DNA of 24,000 bases, taken from the NCBI GenBank assembly GCA_002238585.1, contig MPMQ01000001.1:117771-141770 (forward strand), given 5' to 3'. This stretch comes from Kistimonas sp. bin40. GTDB lineage: Bacteria > Pseudomonadota > Gammaproteobacteria > Pseudomonadales > Endozoicomonadaceae. This document shows positions 3,260 to 17,420 of the stretch, in pieces. Every line of letters starts with the position of its first letter. Within the stretch, counting starts at the first letter, position 1. The position numbers were made by a program, and so were the translations under genes. The notes under the pieces are model-generated. The model saw only the letters and a list, made by a program, of their open reading frames with translations, was not told the origin of the DNA and ran no database searches.

Positions 3260-4600
3260 ATGACGGCAGAACCCTACGATGTCCTGATTGTGGGTGGCGG
3301 CGTGTCCGGCACAGCTCTGCTGTATCAGCTGACACGCTATACGGATATTCAGCGTATTGCCCTGCTGGAGAAGTACGACAGCTTGGCACAGGTCAATTCC
3401 AGAAGCAGCAACAACAGTCAAACCATCCACTGTGGCGATATAGAAACCAACTACAGTCTGGAAAAAGCCCTCAAGGTCCAACGCACTGCCGCCATGCTGG
3501 TGAACTACGCCCAGTCTCTTCCTGCGCAAGAGCGCGATACCATTATATTCAAGCACTCCAAAATGGTACTGGGCGTTGGTGCTCGTGAATGTCAATTTCT
3601 ACGACAGCGCTTTGATGTCTTCAGCAAGCACTACAGCGGCATGCGATTAATGGAAAAGGACCAGATTGCTGAACTGGAGCCCCAGGTCGTTGCCGGCAGG
3701 CAGGGCGCTCAGGATGAAGAGCTGGTGGCACTGGCGGTGGTGGATGAGTACACGGCGGTTGACTTCCAGACGCTGTCCGACTCTTTTGTTCGCCAGGCAA
3801 AAGCCAGCGGCCGTGACCCGGCTGTTCACATGAACACCAAGGTCGAGAAGATGAGCCAGGAAGACAACGGCCTCTACCGGGTACACACCAACCGTGGCGA
3901 TTTCGTGACCCGTAGCCTTGTTGTCAGCGCTGGCGGTCACAGCCTGCTGTTTGCGCAGCAAATGGGCTTCGGATTGAATTTCTCCTGCCTTCCGGTGGCC
4001 GGCAGTTTTTACTTTACGCCTGCTGTTCTCAAGGGCAAGGTCTACACCGTCCAGAACGACAAGCTTCCTTTCGCTGCTATCCATGGTGACCCGGACGTAT
4101 GTGTACCGGGGAAAACGCGCTTTGGTCCTACAGCTCTGCTACTGCCTATGCTGGAGCGTTACAACAGCAGCACCATCCCTGAGTTCTTCAAGGTGTTGCG
4201 TCTGGATGCTTCGGTTCTCAAAGTGCTCTGGGATTTGATGCGCATTGCTGATATTCGCAACTATATTTTCAGGAACTTTCTCCTCGAGGTACCTTTCGTG
4301 CGCCGTCTCCTGTTTTTGCGTGACGCACGCAAGATAGTCCCGGGTTTGAAACTGAGCGACATTTCCTTTGCCAAGCGTTTTGGCGGCGTGCGTCCTCAAT
4401 TGATTGACAAGGAAAACAAAAAGCTCATGCTGGGCGAGGCCCGCATAGCACCGGGACAGGGGCTGATTTTCAATATGACGCCGTCTCCGGGGGGTACCAG
4501 CTGTCTCGGCAATGCAGAGAAAGATTTGCGTGAACTGGTGGCCTTCCTGGGAGCCAAGTTTGACGAGAACAGCTTTCGCCAAGAGCTGGAAAACAGCTGA
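3260..4600 (+). CDS. FAD-dependent oxidoreductase, Mqo-like (copy 1)
   Basis: 446 aa with SD GGAGG 5 nt upstream of the ATG. Rossmann FAD motif DVLIVGGGVSGTA. The blocks SSNNSQTIHCGDIETNY, LPVAGSFYF, LPFAAIHGDPD and NMTPSPGGTSCL are ones I recall from the ~450-aa Helicobacter-type malate:quinone oxidoreductase group (recollection, not a search). The CDS call is strong; the substrate assignment is weak. Confidence 0.8.
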   Translation: MTAEPYDVLIVGGGVSGTALLYQLTRYTDIQRIALLEKYDSLAQVNSRSSNNSQTIHCGDIETNYSLEKALKVQRTAAMLVNYAQSLPAQERDTIIFKHSKMVLGVGARECQFLRQRFDVFSKHYSGMRLMEKDQIAELEPQVVAGRQGAQDEELVALAVVDEYTAVDFQTLSDSFVRQAKASGRDPAVHMNTKVEKMSQEDNGLYRVHTNRGDFVTRSLVVSAGGHSLLFAQQMGFGLNFSCLPVAGSFYFTPAVLKGKVYTVQNDKLPFAAIHGDPDVCVPGKTRFGPTALLLPMLERYNSSTIPEFFKVLRLDASVLKVLWDLMRIADIRNYIFRNFLLEVPFVRRLLFLRDARKIVPGLKLSDISFAKRFGGVRPQLIDKENKKLMLGEARIAPGQGLIFNMTPSPGGTSCLGNAEKDLRELVAFLGAKFDENSFRQELENS

Positions 4601-4853: not shown

Positions 4854-6479
4854 ATGCAAGTCTTGGGATTCGAACGCCTGATAATGGCCCTCCTTATGTT
4901 GGGACTCATTGCTGTGATGGGCTTCATTCTCTGGGATACTATCCGCCGCAGGAATTCGGGGCGACTCGCCGCATCGATTCTTTTGGCCACGCTGGGGCTG
5001 GGAGCCCTTGGCTTTGTTGTTATCCCTGCACAGCTGGAACGATCGACCGAAGAGTCGCCTCCGGGCCTCTGGCCTGCAGATCAGGCCCGGGAAAATATTG
5101 CGCACAACGCAGACGAGCGGGGTGAAGAAGCGGTCCCCTACGATGTGGTCATTGTCGGCGGAGGCGTATCGGGGACGGCCCTGCTGTACCAGTTGACGCG
5201 CTACACAGACGTTGCACGTGTTGCCCTGTTGGAGAAATACGACAGGCTGGCTCAGGTCAACTCCAGGAGCAGCAACAACAGTCAGACCATTCACTGTGGT
5301 GATATAGAAACCAACTACAGCCTGGAGAAGGCGCTCAGGGTCAAGCGCGCGGCCGCTATGCTGGTGAATTACGGTTTGGGCCTGCCGGCCGAAGAGCGTG
5401 ACGAGATTCTGTTCAAGTTCCCCAAAATGGTGCTGGGTGTCGGCGCCCGTGAGTGCGCGTTCTTGCGGCAGCGCTACGAGACATTCAGAGAACACTACAG
5501 CGGCATGCGACTGCTGGAAAAAGCCCAGATTGCTGAAGTGGAGCCTCTGGTGGTCGCCGGGCGGGAAGGAGAGCAGGACGAGGAGCTGGTCGCCCTGGCA
5601 GTGGTGGACGAGTACACGGCCGCGAATTACCAGAAGTTGTCCGACTCCTTCGTCCGCCAGGCGCAAAAGAGCGGACGGGCCCCGGCGATTCATATGGGCA
5701 CCAAGGTTGCGAAGATAGAAAAGGAAGAAAACGGCCTCTATCGTGTGCGCACCAATCGCGGTGACTTTCGCACACGCAGTCTTGTTGTCAGTGCTGGCGG
5801 GCATAGCTTGCTGTTTGCGCAACAAATGGGCCATGGACTGAATTTTTCCTGCCTTCCGGTGGCGGGCAGTTTCTACTTTGTGCCAGAAGTTCTCAGAGGA
5901 AAGGTCTACACCGTACAGAATGACAAGCTGCCCTTTGCAGCCATTCATGGTGACCCGGATGTGAGCGTGCCGGGCAAGACGCGCTTCGGCCCGACAGCCT
6001 TGCTGCTGCCCATGCTGGAGCGCTACAACAACAGTACCATCGGCGACTTTTTCCAGGTTCTGCATCTCGACTCCTCCGTCGCCGCAGTGCTCTGGGATCT
6101 GATGCGGGTCCCTGATATCCGCAACTACATTTTCAAAAATTTCATGTTTGAAATGCCGCTCATACAACGTCGCCTTTTTCTGCGCGATGCACGCAAGATA
6201 GTGCCGGGCTTACAGCTGGAAGATATCACCTTTGCCAAAGGGTTCGGTGGCATACGGCCCCAGCTGATTGACAGGGAAAAGAAGAAACTTCTACTGGGGG
6301 AAGCGCGCATCGCACCGGGAAACGGACTGATTTTCAATATGACGCCCTCTCCGGGAGGCACCAGCTGCCTGAGAAATGCAGAAAAGGACATGCGCGAACT
6401 GGTGACTTGGCTGGGTGCCAGTTTTGACCAGGAGGCCTTTCACAAAGACTTTTACCAGGAGCGGCAGCAGAGCCTGTGA
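4854..6479 (+). CDS. Fusion of a 2-TM small-membrane-protein module and an Mqo-like FAD-dependent oxidoreductase (copy 2)
   Basis: 541 aa. From PYDVVIVGGGVSGTA onward it is roughly 75-80% identical by eye to the 3260..4600 product. The first ~65 aa (two hydrophobic helices, MGFILWDTIRRRNSGR...LGLGALGFV) match the stand-alone ORF 12688..12888. No in-frame stop separates the modules, and I found no in-frame ATG or GTG close to the flavoprotein N-terminus. Confidence 0.8.
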   Translation: MQVLGFERLIMALLMLGLIAVMGFILWDTIRRRNSGRLAASILLATLGLGALGFVVIPAQLERSTEESPPGLWPADQARENIAHNADERGEEAVPYDVVIVGGGVSGTALLYQLTRYTDVARVALLEKYDRLAQVNSRSSNNSQTIHCGDIETNYSLEKALRVKRAAAMLVNYGLGLPAEERDEILFKFPKMVLGVGARECAFLRQRYETFREHYSGMRLLEKAQIAEVEPLVVAGREGEQDEELVALAVVDEYTAANYQKLSDSFVRQAQKSGRAPAIHMGTKVAKIEKEENGLYRVRTNRGDFRTRSLVVSAGGHSLLFAQQMGHGLNFSCLPVAGSFYFVPEVLRGKVYTVQNDKLPFAAIHGDPDVSVPGKTRFGPTALLLPMLERYNNSTIGDFFQVLHLDSSVAAVLWDLMRVPDIRNYIFKNFMFEMPLIQRRLFLRDARKIVPGLQLEDITFAKGFGGIRPQLIDREKKKLLLGEARIAPGNGLIFNMTPSPGGTSCLRNAEKDMRELVTWLGASFDQEAFHKDFYQERQQSL

Positions 6480-6513: not shown

Positions 6514-6542
6514 TTGTTTCAGGGGAGGGCTTCGCCTAGAAT
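6514..6542 (+). promoter_or_regulatory. Candidate sigma70 promoter for rplU-rpmA
   Basis: TTGTTT (6514-6519), 17-nt spacer, TAGAAT (6537-6542), about 160 nt upstream of rplU. Confidence 0.35.
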
Positions 6543-6702
6543 GCGCGGGCCGCTGAGCTTGCGACAGGCAGAGGCCCTTTGTCATAAATCCGGATGACGC
6601 CGGTCACGAGGCACTGCCTTGTTGTCGTACAGTCGGTTTTAACCGCAAACGCCGCAGTGCGGCTGCCTTTGACAAAAAGGCTGGAACATGTCGGAGATAT
6701 CC

Positions 6703-7014
6703 ATGTACGCAGTAATAAAAACCGGTGGCAAGCAATACCGTGTCACTGAAGGCGACACCCTGAAAGTTGAGAAGCTCAGTGCCAATGAAGGGGACACTGT
6801 CGAAATTGACCAGGTTCTGATGCTGGCTTCGGGTGAAGAGGTCGCCATTGGCACACCTTTGATCGAAGGCGCCAGGGTTAGTGCCCAGGTCGTGACACAG
6901 GGGCGTGGCAAAAAGATCAATATTGTGAAATTCAAGCGCCGCAAGCACTACCACAGGCAGGCGGGTCACCGCCAGAGTTTCACAGAGATCAAGATTACCG
7001 GCATAACGAGCTGA
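6703..7014 (+). CDS. rplU: 50S ribosomal protein L21
   Basis: [18 protein letters not shown]... is the canonical L21 N-terminus. GGAG sits 6 nt upstream of ATG 6703. The track start at 6688 adds 5 atypical residues. Confidence 0.95.
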
Positions 7015-7026
7015 TGGGAGGCCGTC

Positions 7027-7284
7027 ATGGCACATAAGAAGGCGGGTGGAAGTACCCGTAATGGTCGAGATTCAGAAAGCAAACGTCTTGGCGTCAAGCG
7101 CTTTGGTGGCCAGGCAGTGATTGCCGGCAACATTCTGGTACGCCAGCGTGGCACCCGGTTTCATGCCGGGCATAACGTTGGACTTGGGCGGGATCATACG
7201 CTCTTTGCCAAAGCCGATGGCAAGGTTGTTTTCGAAACCCGTGGACCCCTGAAAAGAAAGTTTGTCAGCGTCACCACGGACTGA
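7027..7284 (+). CDS. rpmA: 50S ribosomal protein L27
   Basis: [24 protein letters not shown]... is the canonical L27 N-terminus. SD GGGAGG lies upstream, and the gene starts 12 nt after rplU. Confidence 0.96.
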
Positions 7285-7615
7285 CACAGGCCGCAGCGCG
7301 TGCAGCCATGTTCCTGGCCAATTGAAACTGGCTTCCGGGAAGTTGGGTATCAGGGCAGGCGATGACTGGGACCGACTGGATATTCCCTGGAAAAGGCTGG
7401 CATCAATCGCGGCGGGAGCTGCCCTTGGCCGATGTGGTGCCGAGGGGTTCTCCTTGGAGTAGGCGGCCTTGCTGCCGGGGGCGAAGGCGGGAGCTGGAGA
7501 CGTAGATGACAGCCATCAGTCTCCCCTGTGTACACTCCTGAAATCGTATCGTTTCTCATTTTGCACTCTCATTGCTACAGGCGCTGCCCCAGGCCAGTCT
7601 CTGCGGGAATTGTCC

Positions 7616-8694
7616 GGTGCGTTCATGTGTTGCCAACGTCCTTTGGGCAGCCTCCTTGTCACTTCCGTTGAGACGCTGTTCGGGTGTTTTCGTGATGGAG
7701 GTCGGCCGTGAGGTTGGTTGATGAAGCGCGCATCCGGGTCGAAGCGGGTTGTGGCGCAATGGATGCATCAGTAAGCGGTGCGTTCATGCGTCGCCAATGT
7801 TCTTGTGGGCTACCCTTTGCCAGCTTCCTTGATGCGCTGTTCGGGTTCTGGCGGTCGGTCGTGAAGCGGGTTGATGAAGCGCGCATCCGGGTCGAAGCAG
7901 GTTGTGGCGCAATGGGTGCATCAGTAAGCGGTGCGTTCATGTGTCGCCAATGTTCTTGTGGGGTACCCTTTGCCAGCTTCCTTGATGCGCTGTTCGGGTG
8001 ATGGCGGTCGGTCGTGAAGCGGGTTGATGAAGCGCGCATCCGGGTCGAAGCAGGTTGTGGCGCAATGGGTGCATCAGTAAGCGGTGCGTTCATGTGTCGC
8101 CAATGTTCTTGTGGGCTACCCTTTGCCAGCTTCCTTGATGCGCTGTTCGGGTGATGGCGGTCGGTCGTGAAGCGGGTTGATGAAGCGCGCATCCGGGTCG
8201 AAGCAGGGCGTGGTGGTGATGGATGTATCAGAAAACGGTGCGTTCATAGGCTACCAATGTCCTTGCGGGGAGCCCCTTGCCACTTCCCTTGAGGTGCTGC
8301 TCGGGTGATGGCGGTCGGTCGTGAAGCGGGTTGATGAAGCGCGTATCCATGTCGAAGCAGGTCATGGCGACAGTGGATGCCTCAGCAAGAGGTGCGTTCA
8401 TGGGCTACCAATGTCCTTGTGGGGTGCCCCTTGCCACTTCCCTTGAGGTGCTGCTCGGGTGATGGAGGTCGGTTGTGAAGCGGGTTGATGAAGCGCGTAT
8501 CCTGGTCGAAGCAGGTCGTGGCGGCAGTGGATGCATCAGCAAGAGGTGCTTTCATAGGCTACCAATGTCCTTGTGGGGTGCCCCTTGCCACTTCCCTTGA
8601 GACGCTGTTCGGATGATGGAGGTCGGTCGTGAAGTTTGTTGATGAAGCTCATATCCAGGTAGAAGCAGGTCGTGGCGGCAGTGGATGCATCAGT
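7616..8694 (+). repeat. Tandem array (153/154-bp unit, 6 full copies plus 1 partial) of the obg leader and first ~22 codons
   Basis: Unit starts (GTGAAGCGGGTTGATGAAGCGCG) are at 7708, 7861, 8014, 8167, 8321 and 8475. The genuine obg GTG is at 8629, and a partial leader-only copy begins at ~7616. Homology to obg ends after codon 22 (~8694). Confidence 0.95.
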
Positions 8695-9828
8695 TTTCGT
8701 CGGGAGAAATACGCTCCCCGGGGTGGTCCTGATGGTGGAAACGGCGGCTCAGGCGGTGACATTTATTTACAAGCGGATGATGATCTCAATACTCTGGTTG
8801 ACTACCGTTACACGCGCCGCTACAGCGCAGGCCACGGGGAACAAGGCCGCGGAGGAAACTGCACCGGGGCACAAGGCAACGACCTGGTACTGCGGGTTCC
8901 GACAGGAACGGCGGTGGTTGATGAAGAAGCCGGGGAGCTGCTGGGGGACCTGACGACAGTTGGCCAAAGATTGCTGGTAGCCAAGGGAGGGCGCAATGGT
9001 GTTGGCAATCACTGTTTCAAGTCCAGCACCAACCGCACGCCTCGCACAGCAACACCAGGACAGCCCGGGCAGGTGCGTCAACTCAAGCTGGAACTGAAAG
9101 TCATTGCTGACGTTGGTCTTCTGGGCATGCCCAATGCTGGAAAATCGACGTTGATACGGGCTGTATCCCATGCCAGACCCCGCGTGGCGGACTACCCGTT
9201 TACCACTTTGTTTCCCAGTCTGGGTGTTGTGCGTGTGCAACAGCACCGCAGCTTTGTCATGGCCGACATTCCTGGATTGATCGCAGGGGCTTCGCAGGGG
9301 GCCGGTCTGGGCATCCGCTTTCTGAAGCACCTTGTTCGATGTCGCGTATTGCTGCACCTTGTTGACATAGCGCCTATGGATGGTTCTGATCCTGTCGAGG
9401 CTGCCCGCACTATTATCCAGGAGCTGGAGACTTTCAGTCATTCCCTGGCAGTGCGGGAACGTTGGCTGGTTTTGAATAAAACGGATCTTCTGCCGGAGGA
9501 TGCCTGTGTTGACAGATGCGAGCGTCTTGTTGAAGCGCTGGACTGGAAAGGCCCTGTGTACAGGATTTCAGCCGAAACCCAACAGGGCATCGCACCCTTG
9601 AGTCAGGCCATTATGACCTGGATCGAAGAGCGTCGTTCCATGGAGAACGAGGACCCTGAGATGGCGCACACGGAAGCCCTCCAGCAAAAAACCATGGAGG
9701 AAGAGGCACGCTTGCGTATCCAGGACTACAATGCCAAGCGCAAGGCAGCCCGAGCAGCACAAGCTGAGGAGCCGTGTACGCAGGAGCAGGATGAGGCGTC
9801 TGACACCCAGGTGCTCTATGTGCCCTGA
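8629..9828 (+). CDS. obg: GTPase Obg/CgtA
   Basis: [44 protein letters not shown] (Obg fold), then G1 GMPNAGKST and [14 protein letters not shown], and an acidic C-terminal tail. GTG start with GGAGG 8 nt upstream. Conserved rplU-rpmA-obg order. Confidence 0.96.
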
Positions 9829-10965
9829 GCTGTTATGGCAGCCTGGCGGGCTCGTGTGGGGGGCGTGACAGGCCCTCTGGCACAGACGCCGTGACGCAGT
9901 ACAGCCTCATGAGCTGGTCAAAGTTCGGAGTGCGCTGCCTCCATGCTCACGGCATCACCAATGAAAGCCGCCCCTTGGGTGTGAGATGTCCCCTTGGCAC
10001 TCCGGTGTTCTACACGCGCTGACCATAGCTGACTGGCGGTTGTCGTGTGGTTTTTCGTCACAGGGTGCCTTGGAAAAGACGCTGTGACGCAGTACAGCCT
10101 CATGAGCTGGTCAAAGTTCGGAGTGCGCTGCCTCCATACTCACGGCATCACCAATGAAAGCCGCCCCTTGGGTGTGAGATGTTTGCTTGGCACTCCGGTG
10201 TTCTACACGCGCTGACCATAGCTGACTGGCGGTTGTCGTGTGGTTTTTCGTCACAGGGTGCCTTGGGAAAAACGCTGTGATGCAGTACAGCCTCATGAGC
10301 TGGTCAAGGTCCAGAGTACGTTGCCCCACATGCTCGTGGCATCACAAATGAAAACCGCCCCTTGGGGGTGTGAAATGTTTCCCTTGGTACTCCACTGCTC
10401 TACGTGCCCTGAGCTGTTGTGGCTGACTGGCGGGCACGAGTAAGTTTTCGTTACAGGGCACTCTGGAGAAGACGGCGTGACATAGTGCTGGATCAAGGCT
10501 CAGAGTGCGTTGCCTCAACGTGTATGGCCTCACAAATGAAAGCCGCTCCTTGGGCGTGAGGTTTTTCCCTTGGAGCTCCGCTGCTCTACGTGCGCTGAAC
10601 ATGGCGGACTGGCGGTTGTCGTGTGGTTGTCGTGTGGTTGTTCGGTGCGGGGCACCCTGGAAAGGGCGCCTTGGTTGAGTACAACCCTCCAGCTGAATCA
10701 AGGTGCAAAATAGATCACCTTGCATGTTCGCGGCCTCATAAATGAAAGCCGCCCTTTGGGAGTGAGGTGTTTCCCCAGGAACTCCGTTTTTCTACGTGCG
10801 CTGAGCATGGCTGACTGGCGGTTGTCGTGTGGTTTTTCGTTGCGGGGACCCTGGAAAGGACGCTTTGGTTGAGTACAGCCCAACAGCTGAATCAAGGTTC
10901 AAAATAGACCACCTGCATGTTCGCGGTCTCATAAATGAAAGCCGCCACTTGGGTGTGAGATGTGT
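9810..10965 (+). repeat. Degenerate tandem array (~185-205-bp unit, ~6 copies) beginning inside the last codons of obg
   Basis: The marker GTGACGCAGTACAGCCTCATGAGCTGG occurs at 9891, 10084 and 10277 (period 193). More diverged copies follow to ~10965. Unit starts at ~10004, 10197, 10394, 10579 and 10784 resemble the obg terminus GGTGCTCTATGTGCCCTGAGCTGTT at 9810. Confidence 0.9.
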
Positions 10966-11482
10966 CTCTTTTCTCAATGAAAAGAGTGGGTGGCGGTATA
11001 AAAAGGCGATGCAATTGTGCAAGTTACGTGATTAGTAGGCTTCGGGGGGTAGAAGCCGCACCATAGCTGGTTAATCCTGAGCCATTGCACCCGAGGCTCA
11101 AGTGGAGTTATGTGACGATAAAAAGTTGCTTCAGAAAACGGGGCGTTTTTTATCAAAATTCATCAGCGAGCGGGGCGGCTCGAGCGGAGTTCGTACTCTT
11201 CGGAGGGGCGGGCCCCACTCCAGCTCGGACGGGCATAAACAGGATTTCAAACTGCATTTCTGTCTGCCAGGCGAGCCCGGGCGGGCCGACAGCTTGTTGA
11301 AAACTGTTTTTCAGCCTTGACCCTGTTGCCCTTGGCTGTAACAATCCGGCAGCCTTGGCGCGTGGCTTGAGTGGAACTGTCAAGTTCTACGGTAAGCTGT
11401 CCGCCCCGGGATGACCGGGGAACGGGCCTGGGCTCTTTTAACATAAAGTTTTTTCACCTGCCAACTTGGAGGAAATATCCAG

Positions 11483-11752
11483 ATGGCCAACTCTCCTTCT
11501 GCCAGAAAGCGTGCCCGCACACAGGAAAAGCGGCGGAAACACAATGTCAGCCAACGCTCTATGGTTCGCACTTACATAAAGAAAGTTCTGGCTGCTGTTG
11601 CCACCGGCAATGCTGAGGAAGCCCGCACAGCCTATGCTGCGGCAGTACCCGTGGTGGATCGCATGGCTGACAAGGGCCTGATTCACAAGAACAAGGCTGC
11701 ACGCCACAAGAGCCGACTCAATGCACGTGTCAAGGCGTTGGCTACGGCCTGA
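11483..11752 (+). CDS. rpsT: 30S ribosomal protein S20
   Basis: [35 protein letters not shown]... is canonical S20. SD GGAGG lies upstream. Confidence 0.95.
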
Positions 11753-11795
11753 TACGACCTGATACGGCCTGAGTAGCCTGCATCCTGTTGTCTCC

Positions 11796-11975
11796 TGGTG
11801 GTGCCCCGCGTGCGCACCGAAGCGAAGATGGGAAAGTTACGGATGCTGAGGCTGGTTGGTGGTGCTTGGGCTCGCGTCGGAGCGAGGACAAAAAAGTCGT
11901 GAATGCTGGGGCAGATTGATGGTGCCTGGCTGCGCTCCGGGGCTGTAGAGCCATCCGGCACGCCCTCTGTGAACC
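11796..11975 (+). repeat. Degenerate ~60-bp tandem repeat (about 3 copies) downstream of rpsT
   Basis: TGGTGGTGC / TGGTGGTGC / TGATGGTGC unit starts at 11796, 11857 and 11917, with shared ...GCG..CGGAGCGA...GATGCTG.GGC... blocks. Divergence is high. Confidence 0.5.
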
Positions 11976-12275
11976 AGCGTGGTCCGTACCCCCTTGCAGG
12001 AAACGGGGATGCAATGTCGTTGCTATACTCCCCCGTTCTGTGAGCGTGCTGGACGTCAGTTCCCTCAGTTCCCTGTGGAGCTGGTGGGGTTGCTCTGTGG
12101 TGAGGAAAGCAGAGAGAGGGGATGAAAGCGCAATCTGACGAGCAGCACTGCGGAGCCTGTTGATCGAGGGAGGACAAGCTTTACTCGCGCTATAAAGAAT
12201 AACGACCTGCTCCCGTTCTTTTGTTTCAGAGGGCGGCTATAGGCTGCAGGCTCGCCAAGGGATAGTGCCCAGACC

Positions 12276-12335
12276 CAGAATATCCAGGGGCAGAATATCC
12301 AGGGGCAGAATATCCAGGGGCAGAATATCCAGAGA
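12276..12335. repeat. 15-bp tandem repeat CAGAATATCCAGGGG x4
   Basis: Units at 12276, 12291, 12306 and 12321 (the last imperfect), flanked on both sides by GATAGTGCCC. Confidence 0.9.
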
Positions 12336-12340
12336 TAGTG

Positions 12341-12366
12341 CCCGGGATACCCGGGATACCCGGAAT
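12341..12366. repeat. 9-bp tandem repeat CCCGGGATA x2.5
   Basis: The sequence CCCGGGATACCCGGGATACCCGGA, read directly. Confidence 0.75.
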
Positions 12367-12526
12367 AAATAATAGTGCCCAGCATAAAGGGAACCCCGGG
12401 CATGTCGCTGACCGCAGCAGTCAGCGTGTGAGCTTTCACAGCTGGATGGCCGCGCGCAGACCAGGTGGTGTAGTCCGCTGGGTCGTCTGTGCGGCACTGG
12501 AAAGATGCAGCCCCGACCAGGAAGCG

Positions 12527-12589
12527 GCATACAGCGCATACAGCGCATACAGCGCATACAGCGCATACAGCGCATACAGCGCATACAGG
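12527..12589. repeat. 9-bp tandem repeat GCATACAGC x7
   Basis: Seven head-to-tail units from 12527 (the last is GCATACAGG), about 100 bp upstream of the small membrane-protein gene. Confidence 0.95.
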
Positions 12590-12687
12590 TGGCCGCTATG
12601 TGAGGACAATTCACCGGGGCCTGGCTCAGTGCCTTGCTGTGACAGGCATGTACGTACTCTCACCGTTATGTCCAGGAGATCTGAGTA

Positions 12688-12888
12688 GTGGATGCTATGG
12701 AATTTGAGCACTTGATGCTGAGTATTCTTTTGCCGACCCTGATCATTGCTATGGGGTTCATCGTCTGGGACATTGCGCGTCGCAGCAAAGCCGGTCGATT
12801 TGGGACATGGATTCTGTTTGGCACTCTGGGGCTGGGTGTTCTGGGTTTTGTGATCAAGGAGCTGATAGCTCTCAGCCTGAAGGTGTAG
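12688..12888 (+). CDS. Small 2-TM membrane protein (DUF2788-like by recollection)
   Basis: 66 aa with a GTG start and AGGAG 9 nt upstream (alternative ATG at 12697). Two hydrophobic helices. About 50% identical by eye to the N-terminal module of the 4854..6479 product (MGFIVWDIARRSKAGRFG...LGLGVLGFV vs MGFILWDTIRRRNSGRLA...LGLGALGFV), which supports it as a real gene. Confidence 0.65.
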   Translation: MDAMEFEHLMLSILLPTLIIAMGFIVWDIARRSKAGRFGTWILFGTLGLGVLGFVIKELIALSLKV

Positions 12889-13344
12889 GGGCGGTCCTCG
12901 TGCCAGGAAGCAGGATCTGACGGGAATGGGGGCACAGCAGGCTCTCTTAAGGTCAGGGTGCTTTGTCTCGTGCAGTCCTGTTCGGGATGTATTCCCTGTG
13001 GCCCTGTGCCAACCCCATCCTGTTTGTGTTGCCGGAGCGCGGCGCGAGCTTTTCGCAGCAAGAGAGGGGCATGTCCGTTCAGTGTGAAAAAGCAGCAGAA
13101 TAGTCAGGCTGTTGCCGTGCTCCATAGCACATGCCCCATGCCCCATGCTGGAGCGGGGACTGTGTAAAGTGAGTGCCTGGCAGAGCCGGGCAATCATGTG
13201 GGCAGCTCCCTTTGTGACAAGGTGTCCTTGGAGGGATGCGTCTTCAAGCAGATCTTTTTCGAAGCGGTGCGCTTGGATTGAGATCCCAACTTGCTGTTCT
13301 AACTGATGTTCCAGGCGGGTCTTATGCTGCGCCGCCATGCGTGC

Positions 13345-14128
13345 GGCCTCGCATTCATTCGTTACCCTTCCGTTTCCTGCTCCGTCACTCCCGCGCCCTT
13401 CTCGTGATTCCTCGCTCCTTATCCTTCCCGCGCCTCCCGTCATTCCCGCGAAGGCGGGAATCCATACTGTACCTCCGTCCTTACAGCTCCACCTTCATTG
13501 GTACTCCCCCTTCGCCCCCTGTCATTCCTGCGCTCCCCGTCATTCCTGCGCTCCCCGTCATTCCCGCGCCCTTCTCGTGATTCCTCGCTCCTTATCCTTC
13601 CCGCGCCTCCCGTCATTCCCGCGAAGGCGGGAATCCATACTGTACCTCCGTCCTTACAGCTCCACCTTCATTGGTACTCCCCCCTCGCCCCCTGTCATTC
13701 CTGCGCTCCCCGTCATTCCCGCGCCCTTCTCGTGATTCCTCGCTCCTTATCCTTCCCGCGCCCCCCGTCATTCCCGCGAAGGCGGAAATCCATACTGTAC
13801 CTCCGTCCTTACAGCTCCACCTTCATTGGTACTCCCCCTTCGCCCCCTGTCATTCCTGCGCTCCCCGTCACTCCCGCGCCCTTCTCGTTATTCCTCGCTC
13901 CTCATCATTCCCGCGAAGGCGGAAATCCATACTGTACCTCCGTCCTTACAGCTCCACCTTCATTGGTACTCCCCCTCCGCCCCCTGTCATTCCTGCGCTC
14001 TCCGTCATTTCCGCGAAGGCGGGAATCCATACTGCACCTCCGTCCGTACAGCCTCACCTTCATTCGTCATCCCTTGCGCTCCCCGTCGTTTCTGCGTCTC
14101 CCGTCATTCCCGCGAAGGTTGGAATTGA
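13345..14128. repeat. Mosaic tandem-repeat region built around a 20-bp palindrome ATTCCCGCGAAGGCGGGAAT
   Basis: Palindrome copies are at 13442, 13615, 13770, 13907, 14007 and 14106 (spacings 173, 155, 137, 100, 99 bp). They are interleaved with reused modules (TACCTCCGTCCTTACAGCTCCACCTTCATTGGTACTCCCCC; 15-bp CCGTCATTCCTGCGCTC sub-repeats; CGCGCCCTTCTCGTGATTCCTCGCTCCTTATCCTTCC). Confidence 0.92.
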
Positions 14129-14748
14129 CCTGGTGCGCGGCAAGCCCCGTCCTTCAGGGCGGGGAAGGATAGCGCGCCTAATCTCACTGGCATTATTCGT
14201 AGACCTGACGTATGCCCCATGGCTCAAGGGCGGGACACGCCCGGCTCGCCCGTGAAGTGAGCGGTGAGGTAATGCCGCCAGCAGCAGGAACCCGCCGAAG
14301 CGACTCACAGGCGGCAGCGTGAAGCTGTCACCTGTGAGCGCAGCAGGAATCCCCGTCCTTCAGGGCGGAGAGGATGTCAACCACTTGATAGCCATCTGTC
14401 TTCGGCGGGGCTTGTCTTCAAGGTGACTTGTTTGACCGAGACGCGCCTGGATTGAGAACTCAGCTGCCGTTCTACTCGGCTCAACAGTTTCGGGCATTCA
14501 AATGACAGGATGTGTTCGGTGCAAGGAAAGCTGGCGCAGAGTGAGCCAGCACAACTGAATACAATCGCGAGGAGCCGGCTTCTGATGGCGGATTGCTCCC
14601 TCTGGTGCACTGTAAAAGCTCAAAGCCGTCGGACCCTGCTGGATGTCTTCCCGGAAAACGGTGAGGCAAAGACGCCCCGGGCCAGTGTTGCCTGGGCGCA
14701 TTTCGAGGCAGAACTGTGCACCGCAAGCGCGATGCCCAGTCCCCGTCC

Positions 14749-15582
14749 TTACACTGCGACGGGCGCCTTTATCGCCGCATGGGACTGATAGTCCTGCAGC
14801 GTGAAATCGGCAGCAGTAAAGTCGAGCAGCTCGTGTATTGCCGGGTTAAGTTCCATCCGTGGCAGTGGCAGGGGAGTGCGCGACAGTTGCTCCCGCGCTT
14901 GCTCCATGTGATTACTGTACAGATGCGTGTCGCCCAGACTGTGCACCAGCTCTCCCGGTTGCAGCTTGCAGACCTGCGCCAGCATCAGCGTCAAGAGCGC
15001 ATAGCTGGCGATGTTGAAAGGCAACCCCAGAAACACATCTGCGCTGCGTTGATACAACTGGCAGGACAACCGCCCTTCGGCCACATAAAACTGAAACAGG
15101 CAGTGACAGGGGGCCAGCGCCTGACGTCCCCGGGCCGCATTTTCCTGTGGGCTGAGAGCCGGGTCCGGAAGGACCGTCGGATTCCAGGAGGAAACGACCA
15201 GGCGACGCGAATCAGGCTGGGTCCTGATGTTGTGCACCAGCTCTGTTATCTGGTCGACCATGGTGCCTTCCGGTCCCTCCCAATGACGCCACTGGGTGCC
15301 GTAGACGGGGCCCAGGTCGCCCTCCTGTGTTGCCCACTCATTCCAGATAGAAACCCCCTGTTCACGCAGACTGGTGATATTGGTCTCGCCACGCAGGAAC
15401 CAGAGCAACTCGTGAATAATCGAGCGCAGATGACAGCGCTTGGTCGTCACCAGCGGAAACCCCTGAGCCAGATCAAATCGCATCTGGTAACCGAAAATGC
15501 TCCGGGTACCCGTTCCTGTTCGATCGTTCTTGTCTACGCCCCGATCCATGACCTGGCGCATCAGTTCCAGATACTGTTTCAT
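14749..15582 (-). CDS. thyA: Thymidylate synthase ThyA
   Basis: [38 protein letters not shown]... with active-site block [12 protein letters not shown] and a C-terminal ...[13 protein letters not shown] at 15582 overlaps the lgt stop (TGATG). Confidence 0.96.
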
Positions 15583-16406
15583 CAATTGGGTCCCTGAGTT
15601 CGTGAGCGGGAAAAGCTGTGGTTAACGGCAGGTCTTGTGTAACTGCGCACCAGCATTACCAGCCCCACCAGCACCATGGGCAAGCTCAGCAGCTGACCCA
15701 TGGTCAGCCCGCCGATCAGATAACCCAGTTGTGGATCAGGCTGGCGGAACAGCTCAACCACTGTGCGCAACAGACCGTAGGTGACCAGGAAAAAGCCGGA
15801 TACTGCCATTTCCGGACGCTGGCGGCGTGAAAAAAGCCAGACAGCCGCAAAGAGCACTACCCCTTCGGCAAAGAATTGATACAGCTGGGAAGGGTGGCGT
15901 GGCAGCTGCAAGGGATCGCCCGGAAACACCATGGCCCAGGGCACATCGCTGGCCCGTCCCCAGAGCTCACCGCCGATAAAGTTGCCGATGCGCCCGGCAC
16001 CGAGTCCAAAAGGTACCAGGGGCGCGATAAAATCGGTCATCTGAAAGAACGACTTTCCCTGACGACGGGCATAGAGGCCCGTAGAGACCAGCACCCCCAA
16101 AAGACCACCGTGGAAGGACATGCCTCCTTGGTCAATGCGCAGCAGCCACAGAGGGTCCTGCAAAAATTGCGGCAGATTATAAAAAAACACATAGCCGAGG
16201 CGGCCACCGAGCACAACGCCCAGCGCACCAAAAAAAATAAGATCTGCCAACTGATCCTCTGTCCAGACGGCGTCCGGGCGCTTGCAGGCTGCACGCCCCA
16301 GCACCCAGGCACCACAAAAGCCCAGCACATACATAAGGCCGTACCAGTGCAGCTGGACAGGCCCGACAGAAAGGATGATGGGATCAATATGCGGGTAGGC
16401 AATCAC
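15582..16406 (-). CDS. lgt: Prolipoprotein diacylglyceryl transferase Lgt
   Basis: Track ORF 15582..16838 is over-extended. Lgt similarity starts at GTG 16406 ([30 protein letters not shown]; cf. E. coli [24 protein letters not shown]) and includes [20 protein letters not shown] and HPSQLY. A GTGA overlap joins it to the upstream gene's stop. The lgt-thyA order matches E. coli. Confidence 0.92.
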
Positions 16407-17257
16407 CTGTGCACCTCGTAACCTGGTTCTGTATCCGGCATGTAGATGCCTGCAAGAAACGTCAGTCCCACGCCGAACAGGAGAGCGATAAACAGAAACC
16501 GCAGGACGGGGAGAGGACAGCGATGCGCCAGCCAGGCGCCGAGTCTGGCGCAGGGCGTGCTCATCAGGGTCACTCCGAAAAACGCCGGCCAGTATATCAG
16601 TCCTGCCGGGAGCGGGAACAGCCCGGTGCCCATGCAGCCGCCAGCGTATTTTGCCTGCAGAATATGGGTGACAGTCGCCAGCAGCGCCACCGGTAACACG
16701 CAGGCTGCCGCAGTACCAACAGCCTGGCGTATAGAGACGCCCATTCGACTGAGAAAAGGGACCATCATCATGCCACCGCCCACACCCAGAACGGCAGAAA
16801 GGCAGCCAATAATGGCACCGCCCACACGCAGTATCCATGCAGAAGGGGGGGGGCGGGGGAGAGCGGTACTGCCTTTGCCATAGCCACCGGTGGCAAGGGA
16901 CAGGCCGAAGACAATGGCGGCACCGCCAAACAGCGCCTGCAGCGTGGAGGCATGCAAGCGTACCGTGATCAGGGCACCCAGCGCGGATCCCAGCATGACG
17001 GCGGGCGCCAGCTGGCGAAACAGAGCCCAGCTCAGGGTCTTGCCGCGCTGGTGTCCCAGGATAGAGCTGATGGCTGTAGGAATCATGCAGGCCAGGGAGG
17101 TGCCCACGGCCAGGTGTGTTGCCGTGTCAGGCGACAAGCCCTTCAGGGAAAATTGAAGCACCAGAGTGGGCACCACGACAAGGCCGCCGCCGATTCCGAA
17201 CAGGCCTGCCAGAATGCCTACCACAGCACCTGCTGCCAGATAACTTGCAAATTCCAC
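16403..17257 (-). CDS. TauE/SafE (TSUP, DUF81) family membrane transporter
   Basis: Polytopic membrane protein with the duplicated glycine-rich motifs LFGIGGGLVVVP and VLGVGGGMMMVP. The start is uncertain: GTG 17257 is preferred because the track start at 17404 would translate a 13-bp (non-triplet) repeat. TTG 17266 is an alternative. Confidence 0.8.
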   Translation of the reverse strand: MEFASYLAAGAVVGILAGLFGIGGGLVVVPTLVLQFSLKGLSPDTATHLAVGTSLACMIPTAISSILGHQRGKTLSWALFRQLAPAVMLGSALGALITVRLHASTLQALFGGAAIVFGLSLATGGYGKGSTALPRPPPSAWILRVGGAIIGCLSAVLGVGGGMMMVPFLSRMGVSIRQAVGTAAACVLPVALLATVTHILQAKYAGGCMGTGLFPLPAGLIYWPAFFGVTLMSTPCARLGAWLAHRCPLPVLRFLFIALLFGVGLTFLAGIYMPDTEPGYEVHR

Positions 17258-17360
17258 CCTGGTCAAATCATCCTGTTGCGCTGTAGAGTGTGTTCGCCGA
17301 CCTGAGCTGGAGGCTGCAGGTTGTGACCGCACAATACAGCCGCCATGCCCGCTGCCATCC

Positions 17361-17420
17361 GCCACTGACAACTGCCACTGACAACTGCCACTGACAATTG
17401 CCAACCGTCACTGACAAACA
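17361..17420. repeat. 13-bp direct repeat GCCACTGACAACT x3 plus a degenerate fourth copy
   Basis: Units at 17361, 17374 and 17387, then GCCAACCGTCACTGACAAAC. It lies in the divergent intergenic region between the TauE-like gene and the NRDE gene, ending 14 nt before ATG 17435. Confidence 0.85.

Follow-up and report, generated by a model that had tools for sequence, protein, structure and literature searches.

Here we report that a 24,000-nucleotide (nt) stretch of the Kistimonas sp. bin40 genome (GenBank assembly GCA_002238585.1, contig MPMQ01000001.1, positions 117,771 to 141,770; hereafter the window, with positions counted from its first letter) carries long-period tandem arrays in the segment between rpmA and thyA (7285-14748), and that two of these arrays flank the essential GTPase gene obg (cgtA) and consist of diverged copies of the two ends of that gene. 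The arrays are real and not an assembly artefact, and the load of tandem arrays is lineage-specific and enriched over other gammaproteobacteria. An earlier note on this DNA, made from the letters alone, had proposed a duplication process that acts at transcription-unit boundaries. We consider it probable, instead, that the arrays stem from ordinary tandem duplication that spared the intact genes, with slippage or unequal exchange and weak selection, in which case no new mechanism is needed.

The sequence examined amounts to about 54 kb of the genome, namely the 24-kb window, 10 kb upstream and 20 kb downstream, the flanks being reached through exact protein look-ups and covered by JGI, Logan and a second NCBI assembly. 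The window was picked because of its arrays, and the 30 kb of flanks were not pre-selected.

Tandem arrays at gene ends and in spacers

The long arrays, together with the gene that lies between the first two of them, are as follows.

7615-8694, plus strand: array A1, seven head-to-tail units of 151-161 nt (Tandem Repeats Finder, TRF, period 154, 6.5 copies; unit alignment; nhmmer)
8629-9828, plus strand: obg/cgtA, intact gene of a 399-aa GTPase with a GTG start and an array on either side (Pfam GTP1_OBG, 4e-60, and MMR_HSR1)
9800-10966, plus strand: array A2, six units of about 193 nt (188-206) (self-BLAST of 9801-10773 against 9995-10966; unit alignment; nhmmer; TRF)
13382-14127, plus strand: array A3, about five units (173, 155, 137 and 100 nt) with nested 18-nt sub-repeats, touching no coding sequence (TRF, repeat search)
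Contig L090, 15388-16465, which equals contig L177, 10589-11666: array A4, six units of about 180 bp with 84% match, about 10 kb to the right of the window

Unit 7, the last of A1, comprises about 85 nt of native obg leader followed by codons 1-22 of obg, and the unit alignment ends the array at codon 22, in agreement with the claim that the leader and the first 22 codons are reiterated upstream. Units 1-6 are 77-89% identical to this native unit in the identity matrix, and codons 1-22 are thereby present six extra times. Identity to the native unit drops with distance (89, 86, then 77-80%), and neighbouring units are the most alike: units 2-4 at 92-97%, with units 2 and 3 at 97%, and units 5-6 at 93%. 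Every unit carries a Shine-Dalgarno-like GG(A/C)GG followed by GTG, and the copies keep a 46-codon open frame that closes at a TGA about 13 nt ahead of the next GTG.

At the other end of the gene, the first unit of A2 opens with the last 28 nt of obg, stop included, as expected from the claim that the last obg codons begin the downstream array. The terminal CTGA is retained in all six units, which gives five extra copies of the last 28 nt of obg, and identity to unit 1 declines with distance (82, 75, 71, 67 and 67%). Intact obg is therefore the downstream end of A1, which holds its 5' copies, and the upstream end of A2, which holds its 3' copies. The nhmmer profiles gave seven A1 matches and six A2 matches with sharp array edges, and in profile searches of the window neither decayed units past these edges nor dispersed copies of A1 or A2 were found. 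Self-BLAST showed no similarity between the arrays, so that each intergenic segment does hold a different repeat family.

In A4, the gene-proximal unit begins with the stop codon of a beta-carbonic anhydrase gene, and the intact gene is the upstream end of this array, as obg is for A2; the spacer downstream of the carbonic anhydrase gene measures 50-67 bp in two related species. No long array was found in the 10 kb upstream of the window or in the next 10 kb beyond the 10 kb that holds A4. The claim that arrays begin or end inside coding sequences thus stands for A1, A2 and A4, which are homologous to coding-sequence ends, but not for A3, which is anchored to no gene. Each A3 unit contains a perfect 8-bp palindrome, ATTCCCGC-GAAG-GCGGGAAT, for which DNA folding gives an 8-bp hairpin. 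The plus strand of A3 is C-rich (GC skew -0.5), and the minus strand is GGA-rich, with about 14 GGA per 155-nt unit in a hand count.

Two further readings of the long arrays were rejected. A clustered regularly interspaced short palindromic repeat (CRISPR) array does not fit, the units being contiguous, homologous over their full length and without unique spacers. A hairpin common to all units was likewise dropped, as the folding z-scores of +1.1, -2.4, -1.8 and -1.4 are unremarkable.

Shorter tandem repeats occur in the same segment and elsewhere in the window.

11743-11772, plus strand: TACGGCCTGA, three copies (TRF, sequence)
12276-12588, plus strand: short-repeat cluster in the spacer between rpsT and the DUF2788 gene (TRF)
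12276-12332, plus strand: 15 nt, 3.8 copies (TRF)
12341-12367, plus strand: 9 nt, 3 copies (TRF)
12527-12588, plus strand: 9 nt, 6.9 copies (TRF)
17352-17417, plus strand: 13 nt, 3.3 copies (or 20 nt, 3 copies), in the spacer between the divergent TauE and TANGO2 genes, ahead of the TauE start (TRF)

The first TACGGCCTGA unit is made up of the final 7 coding nt of rpsT plus its stop codon (11750-11752), which confirms that the rpsT stop lies within a duplication, here the first of three 10-nt units. A degenerate 61-nt repeat suspected at 11798-11935 was not significant (alignment score 21 against a shuffle maximum of 26). Contig L177, which also holds A4, carries the only short repeats of the outermost 10 kb examined downstream: 9 nt in 4 copies (2668-2704), with an edge 7 nt ahead of the start of a YHS-domain gene, and 8 nt in 3.9 copies (3330-3360), with an edge 7 nt past the stop of a phospholipase D gene. 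In the same contig, a 1.1-kb spacer contains a tRNA-like sequence at about 6519-6594.

Between rpmA and thyA, 1,671 nt are coding and 5,793 of 7,464 nt (78%) are non-coding, 3,102 nt of the latter being tandem repeats. The segment is thus mostly non-coding, as had been noted, but the figure of about 5 kb given for it was too low. Outside this segment a tally of gene calls makes the window about 84% coding. The description of the pattern as window-scale consequently holds only in part: the 30 kb of flanks contain one further long array, but the rest of the window is largely coding.

Reality and lineage specificity of the arrays

An Obg protein identical to that of the window is encoded on contigs of at least five assemblies, including three ENA MEGAHIT assemblies and one NCBI metagenome-assembled genome (MAG). 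Across independent ENA, JGI, Logan and NCBI assemblies, the arrays stand at the same places, with sequence-distinct units in the same order. It is extremely improbable that they are artefacts of short-read metagenome assemblers: the units within arrays differ by 3-33%, which argues against an assembler loop, since such a loop would yield identical copies; the distinct units recur in the same order from different samples and pipelines; and the junctions of the arrays with unique flanks recur in independent assemblies. What an artefact would explain is that contigs of several assemblies break inside A1 and A3, and that A1 has seven units in the window, six in contig L002 and five in contig L001, the unit missing from L002 being unit 3, which is 97% identical to unit 2. 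This likeness of units 2 and 3, together with the contigs that end in arrays, makes the copy number of the long arrays uncertain. A2 has five or six units depending on the assembly and, like A1, differs by whole units, for which short-read collapse is a possible cause.

The short repeats can be spanned by one read. The copy number of GCATACAGC is 6, 3, 4, 3 and 6 across assemblies, and that of the 15-mer CAGAATATCCAGGGG is 3 versus 2. These differences between samples indicate that slippage is active in the population. In the comparison of copy numbers suggested by the earlier note, the short repeats thus vary, at 3-6 copies, and the differences seen in the long arrays may stem from collapse.

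Aplysina aerophoba sponge metagenomes carry proteins identical to those of the window, one source run being SRR8093131, and the product of obg is identical to the NCBI entry Obg family GTPase CgtA from a Kistimonas sp. MAG. On this basis, and with F-box and beta-propeller genes in the neighbourhood, we take the lineage to be host-associated, a sponge symbiont among the uncultured Endozoicomonadaceae, with a GC content of about 57%. Scans of genome and metagenome collections gave no relative with more than 65% Obg identity among the matches listed. A protein search led to three closer relatives (Obg 67-71% identical), which were used for comparison; overall, the nearest genomes by Obg, at 65-71% identity among the matches listed, include Sansalvadorimonas, Parendozoicomonas and Endozoicomonas.

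The three nearest relatives are compact at this locus, with an rpmA-obg spacer of 142-286 bp, an obg-proB spacer of 18-175 bp and no arrays, and in 80 other gammaproteobacteria the rpmA-obg gap is mostly 90-260 bp. With long arrays defined as repeats of 2.5 or more copies and a period of 60 bp or longer, a survey of 163 other gammaproteobacterial obg loci (2.4 Mb) yielded three long-period arrays, versus four in about 54 kb here. Both comparisons bear out the earlier note in calling the arrays lineage-specific. That four long arrays fall within about 54 kb, with one located in the unselected 30 kb, suggests a genome-wide array tendency.

The surroundings of obg have also been rearranged. The relatives share the layout ispB, rplU-rpmA-obg-proB, then rpsT on the other strand, then murJ. 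This synteny is broken at 9829-14748, where proB, murJ, ribF and ispB are gone and rpsT lies on the strand opposite to that in the relatives; when proB, murJ, ispB and further neighbouring genes of the three nearest relatives served as tblastn queries, the non-coding DNA yielded no remnants of them. A rho-independent terminator, AAAAAGCCCCGCTTGCGGGGCTTTTTT, follows rpmA in the three nearest relatives and is absent here (7285-7330). The start codon of obg is GTG here and ATG in the nearest relatives, and the alignment of the obg leader region with the relatives is limited to the coding part.

Origin and possible function of the arrays

In the model that we favour, segments of 150-190 bp would have been tandemly duplicated through slipped-strand mispairing or unequal (illegitimate) exchange. 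The ancestral spacers would have been short (the median in the relatives is 107 bp), so that a duplication leaving genes intact would nearly always straddle a gene start or stop. Duplication across a start would place truncated copies upstream of the intact gene, and duplication across a stop would place copies of the 3' end of the gene downstream. Further slippage or unequal exchange among the units would then bring their number to 5-7, with neighbours partly homogenised and outer units diverging, and the arrays would persist through weak selection, in this host-associated lineage, against surplus non-coding DNA. The likeness of neighbouring units, the fall of identity away from the native unit and the whole-unit differences between assemblies all fit slippage or unequal exchange; divergence has left any microhomology at the junctions of the first duplications unreadable. 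We infer this mechanism, the weakness of selection and the absence of function.

The anchoring of arrays to genes was compared with a null model, in which duplications of 154, 180 and 193 bp were placed at every position of the relatives' gene maps and those lying wholly within a coding sequence were discarded. Among the remaining duplications, 83%, 88% and 89%, respectively, carry a coding-sequence end. Homology to such an end was observed in three of the four long arrays (A1, A2 and A4), and with 83-89% expected no boundary-targeted mechanism is required; the process at transcription-unit boundaries envisaged in the earlier note is thus not called for. The pattern looked striking because flush placement is very unlikely under a naive model in which arrays are dropped at random into existing non-coding DNA, where the chance of lying flush with a gene is about 2/330 to 2/530 per array.

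That chance is one of the points in favour of a dedicated, lineage-specific duplication process at transcription-unit boundaries, such as template switching at promoters, terminators or stalled transcription-replication complexes, by which arrays would be seeded by the mechanism itself rather than filtered by selection. Such a process would also account for the three of four long arrays that are homologous to or flush with a coding-sequence end, for the short repeat that holds a stop codon, for obg being affected at both ends, and for the peak of identity to the native unit beside the gene, as if new units were made at the gene end. We nevertheless regard it as unlikely, since duplication in a compact ancestor with loss of gene-disrupting events already leads to 83-89% anchoring, and ordinary array dynamics, in which the edge unit is under selective constraint, would produce the identity gradient as well. 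Moreover, A3 is unanchored, most short repeats lie away from gene ends, and the units of different arrays have no common sequence or structural motif. Slightly less likely still would be an active and mechanistically distinct process that copies terminal modules of 150-190 bp outward, the resulting arrays of about 1 kb being kept to tune or insulate essential genes such as obg.

Repeated insertion of mobile or dispersed elements into the spacers, whether repetitive extragenic palindromes (REP) and bacterial interspersed mosaic elements (BIME), miniature inverted-repeat transposable elements (MITE) or insertion sequences (IS), is a very improbable source of the arrays. The features that call it to mind are a putative IS-derived relic between A3 and thyA, described below, and the REP-like perfect palindrome of the A3 units. 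The homology of A1, A2 and A4 to the ends of the adjoining genes, by contrast, shows that these arrays arose locally, and no copies of the units were found elsewhere in the examined sequence of this genome. The A3 palindrome is confined to A3 among all loci compared, unlike a REP, BIME or MITE family, and its copies, in contrast to REPIN doublets, all face the same way and are spaced one unit apart. Neither terminal inverted repeats nor target duplications were seen, though no specific test was aimed at them. The exclusion of REP, MITE and IS activity in the earlier note is accordingly sustained, at least for A1 and A2, whose units derive from adjacent genes and have no further copies in the window.

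The relic concerns a 10-mer, CCCCGTCCTT, that overlaps the thyA stop and had been reported to recur in the manner of an array.

14114-14185 (partial) and 14266-14393 (full length), plus strand: relics resembling an IS200/IS605 (IS1341-type) right end or an omega-RNA (Rfam, hairpin)
14741-14750, plus strand: third CCCCGTCCTT, with 2 nt in common with the thyA stop (14749-14751, minus strand) (sequence search)

The 10-mer is found at exactly 14145, 14351 and 14741 (expected number 0.05), so that the three sites are as stated. The first two, however, belong to a repeated 29-nt hairpin, CCCCGUCC-UUCA-GGGCGG(G/A)G, followed by GAGGAUGUCAAC, within the relics, and the third is isolated, outside any array, and may be due to chance. 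Rfam matches of the relics to HgcC score 26.5 and 19.2 bits against a threshold of 50, and a UUCA tetraloop links HgcC with the tnpB sotRNAs, the right ends of IS1341-type tnpB elements and the PATEs derived from them (PMC4615843). The likeness to HgcC, IS1341-type right ends and PATEs consists in a stem-UUCA-stem hairpin followed by GAGGAxGUCA; the differences are the sub-threshold Rfam scores, the lack of tnpB and tnpA, and the confinement of the likeness to 280 nt that are not tandem arrays. No tnpB-like open reading frame (ORF) or Pfam match and no tnpA gene were found near 14114-14393. This segment is best read as a putative IS200/IS605-type relic that lacks a transposase gene.

Several observations weigh against the duplication model. 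Only about 54 kb were seen, in a window chosen for its arrays, and the unselected 30 kb hold one long array, which falls short of establishing an array tendency across the genome. The clustering of three arrays in 7.5 kb, with a single essential gene between two of them, exceeds what a uniform random process would produce. At 11-33% divergence of the units from the native copy, the arrays must be old, and since useless DNA is as a rule deleted from bacterial genomes, their persistence could mean function. Short-read assembly collapse could lie behind the copy-number variation of the long arrays, and the similar total length of all four long arrays (0.75-1.17 kb) is unexplained.

We give little credence to the view that the arrays are functional modules, either multiplied 5' or 3' untranslated regions that tune obg expression, for instance as a relay of 46-codon mini-ORFs, each closing shortly ahead of the following ribosome-binding site, that serve as decoy starts or transcription insulators, or, in the case of the A3 minus strand, a transcript that sequesters CsrA/RsmA. 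The features in its favour are the Shine-Dalgarno-like motif, GTG and open frame, ending about 13 nt before the next GTG, that are retained by each A1 unit, the stop-codon context preserved in all A2 units, and the fact that old arrays have been kept. Against it, the copied codons show no synonymous bias (TTT to CGG, CAT to CGC and CAG to CGG), no sigma-70-like promoter was found on the A1 plus strand, and the relatives manage without such arrays. The 154-nt period is not a multiple of 3, and the A1 units are consequently without a common reading frame. For A3, the density of GGA on the minus strand is joined by repeated weak matches to RsmY, a full-length one in each unit, but these reach only 17.5-23.9 bits, far under the gathering threshold of 57, and no U-tail follows the hairpin, so that the minus strand does not qualify as a member of the RsmY/CsrB families. 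It resembles CsrB, RsmY and RsmZ in its GGA-rich repeats with a terminal GC hairpin and differs from them in scoring below half of the threshold, in lacking a U-tail and an upstream GacA box, and in its length, 0.75 kb of 155-nt units. The RsmY resemblance may be a coincidence of composition or may mark a CsrA-binding RNA. As judged from the sequence, a function of the arrays appears unsupported.

Genomic surroundings and closest known systems

The remaining genes of the array-bearing segment and its borders were assigned with Pfam.

6688-7014, plus strand: rplU
7027-7284, plus strand: rpmA (ribosomal protein L27), the left boundary gene (Ribosomal_L27, 6e-39)
11483-11752, plus strand: rpsT (S20)
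12688-12888, plus strand: DUF2788 small membrane protein gene
14749-15585, minus strand: thyA

Ten further spacer ORFs in 7285-14748 gave no Pfam family match, and the ORFs of the arrays matched no Pfam or NCBIfam family. Public assemblies annotate 57-aa ORFs inside A1 (8228-8401 and 8382-8555, minus strand) and an ORF of about 200 aa over A3 (13337-14172, plus strand), none of which has a family match; these annotated ORFs are probably spurious. The Rfam scan gave no family at threshold, HgcC and RsmY being the only weak matches, and the tRNA search gave no tRNA genes.

Upstream of rplU, two FAD oxidoreductase genes (L-2-hydroxyglutarate oxidase or Mqo-like) form tandem paralogues at 3260-4600 and 4854-6479 (plus strand), with 76.5% DNA identity. 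The second (DAO) paralogue contains a diverged DUF2788 gene fragment at 4906-5017 as an in-frame N-terminal fusion (aa 15-56); by self-BLAST this fragment is 71% identical to 12743-12851 and represents another partial-gene copy. Downstream of thyA, the TauE gene (minus strand) is called with 273 aa in some assemblies (16403-17224) and with 287 aa in others (to 17266). From 18304 to 24000, continuing into contig L090 (9206-13148), there is a run of genes without Pfam or NCBIfam match, followed by two F-box/beta-propeller (eukaryote-like) proteins; within it, adjacent ORFs have similar 3' ends (21282-21446 and 22310-22474, 72% identical).

Long-period tandem repeats of Ehrlichia ruminantium were reportedly described by Collins and co-workers in PNAS in 2005 and by Frutos and co-workers in the Journal of Bacteriology in 2006, and the abstract of the former is said to state that most E. 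ruminantium pseudogenes are truncated gene fragments tied to repeats, which would be the anatomy of coding-sequence ends seen here. The arrays of this study, as 7 x 154 bp (A1), 6 x 193 bp (A2), about 5 x 137-173 bp (A3) and 6 x 180 bp (A4), have the form of variable-number tandem repeats (VNTR), and their closest known counterparts are the long-period intergenic tandem repeats of the E. ruminantium and Wolbachia type. E. ruminantium has 201 tandem repeats that make up 6.3% of the genome, with a mean period of 139 bp, 4.8 copies and 92% match (PMC3287509); the tandem-repeat share in E. coli is 0.38% (PMC3287509). The Wolbachia loci VNTR-141 (7.3 x 141 bp, 1.3 kb) and VNTR-105 (105 bp, 4-5 copies) vary in copy number between strains (PMC3287509). 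Slippage has been proposed for both the E. ruminantium repeats and the Wolbachia VNTRs (PMC3287509, PMC10710844).

The likeness to E. ruminantium lies in a host-associated bacterium with long spacers made of head-to-tail units of about 140-150 bp in few copies each, and the figures, 154-193 bp, 5-7 copies and 84-91% match here versus 139 bp, 4.8 copies and 92% match, are comparable. The two organisms differ, E. ruminantium being an alphaproteobacterial obligate intracellular pathogen with 1.5 Mb and 27% GC and the present organism a gammaproteobacterium with about 57% GC. The units seen here, in about 54 kb, are more diverged (to 67%) than those of E. ruminantium, and the arrays look older. 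With the Wolbachia VNTRs they have in common the intergenic position, the host-associated bacterium and a comparable period; the Wolbachia periods, however, show 98-99% identity within strains and include 23-bp hairpins, whereas the units here are 67-97% identical and a strong hairpin is found in A3 only. Anchoring to coding-sequence ends, seen here, has not been described for the Wolbachia loci. Generic partial tandem gene duplications likewise show one intact gene with truncated copies alongside, but they are usually unstable and soon lost, whereas here 6-7 units stand at several neighbouring loci and are 10-30% diverged. A full-text literature search returned no paper combining Endozoicomonas, tandem repeats and intergenic.

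In practical terms, the arrays break short-read assemblies, several datasets having contigs of this organism that stop within an array. They also give rise to probably spurious ORFs, among them the 'genes' of 57 aa and 200 aa. The arrays could serve symbiont strain typing, for which the GCATACAGC and CAGAATATCCAGGGG repeats could act as strain markers. A general caution follows for compact genomes, in which arrays that start or end in genes are the expected survivors of random duplication and are thus no evidence for targeting. An outward-copying process, if true, would be a convergent counterpart of the unexplained expansion and contraction of units of about 150 bp in E. ruminantium. If the duplication model that we favour is true, a load of tandem units of about 150 bp would not be peculiar to the Rickettsiales and would recur in an unrelated, GC-rich gammaproteobacterial sponge symbiont, providing a second independent system in which to ask why arrays of this kind build up and are tolerated in some host-associated bacteria.

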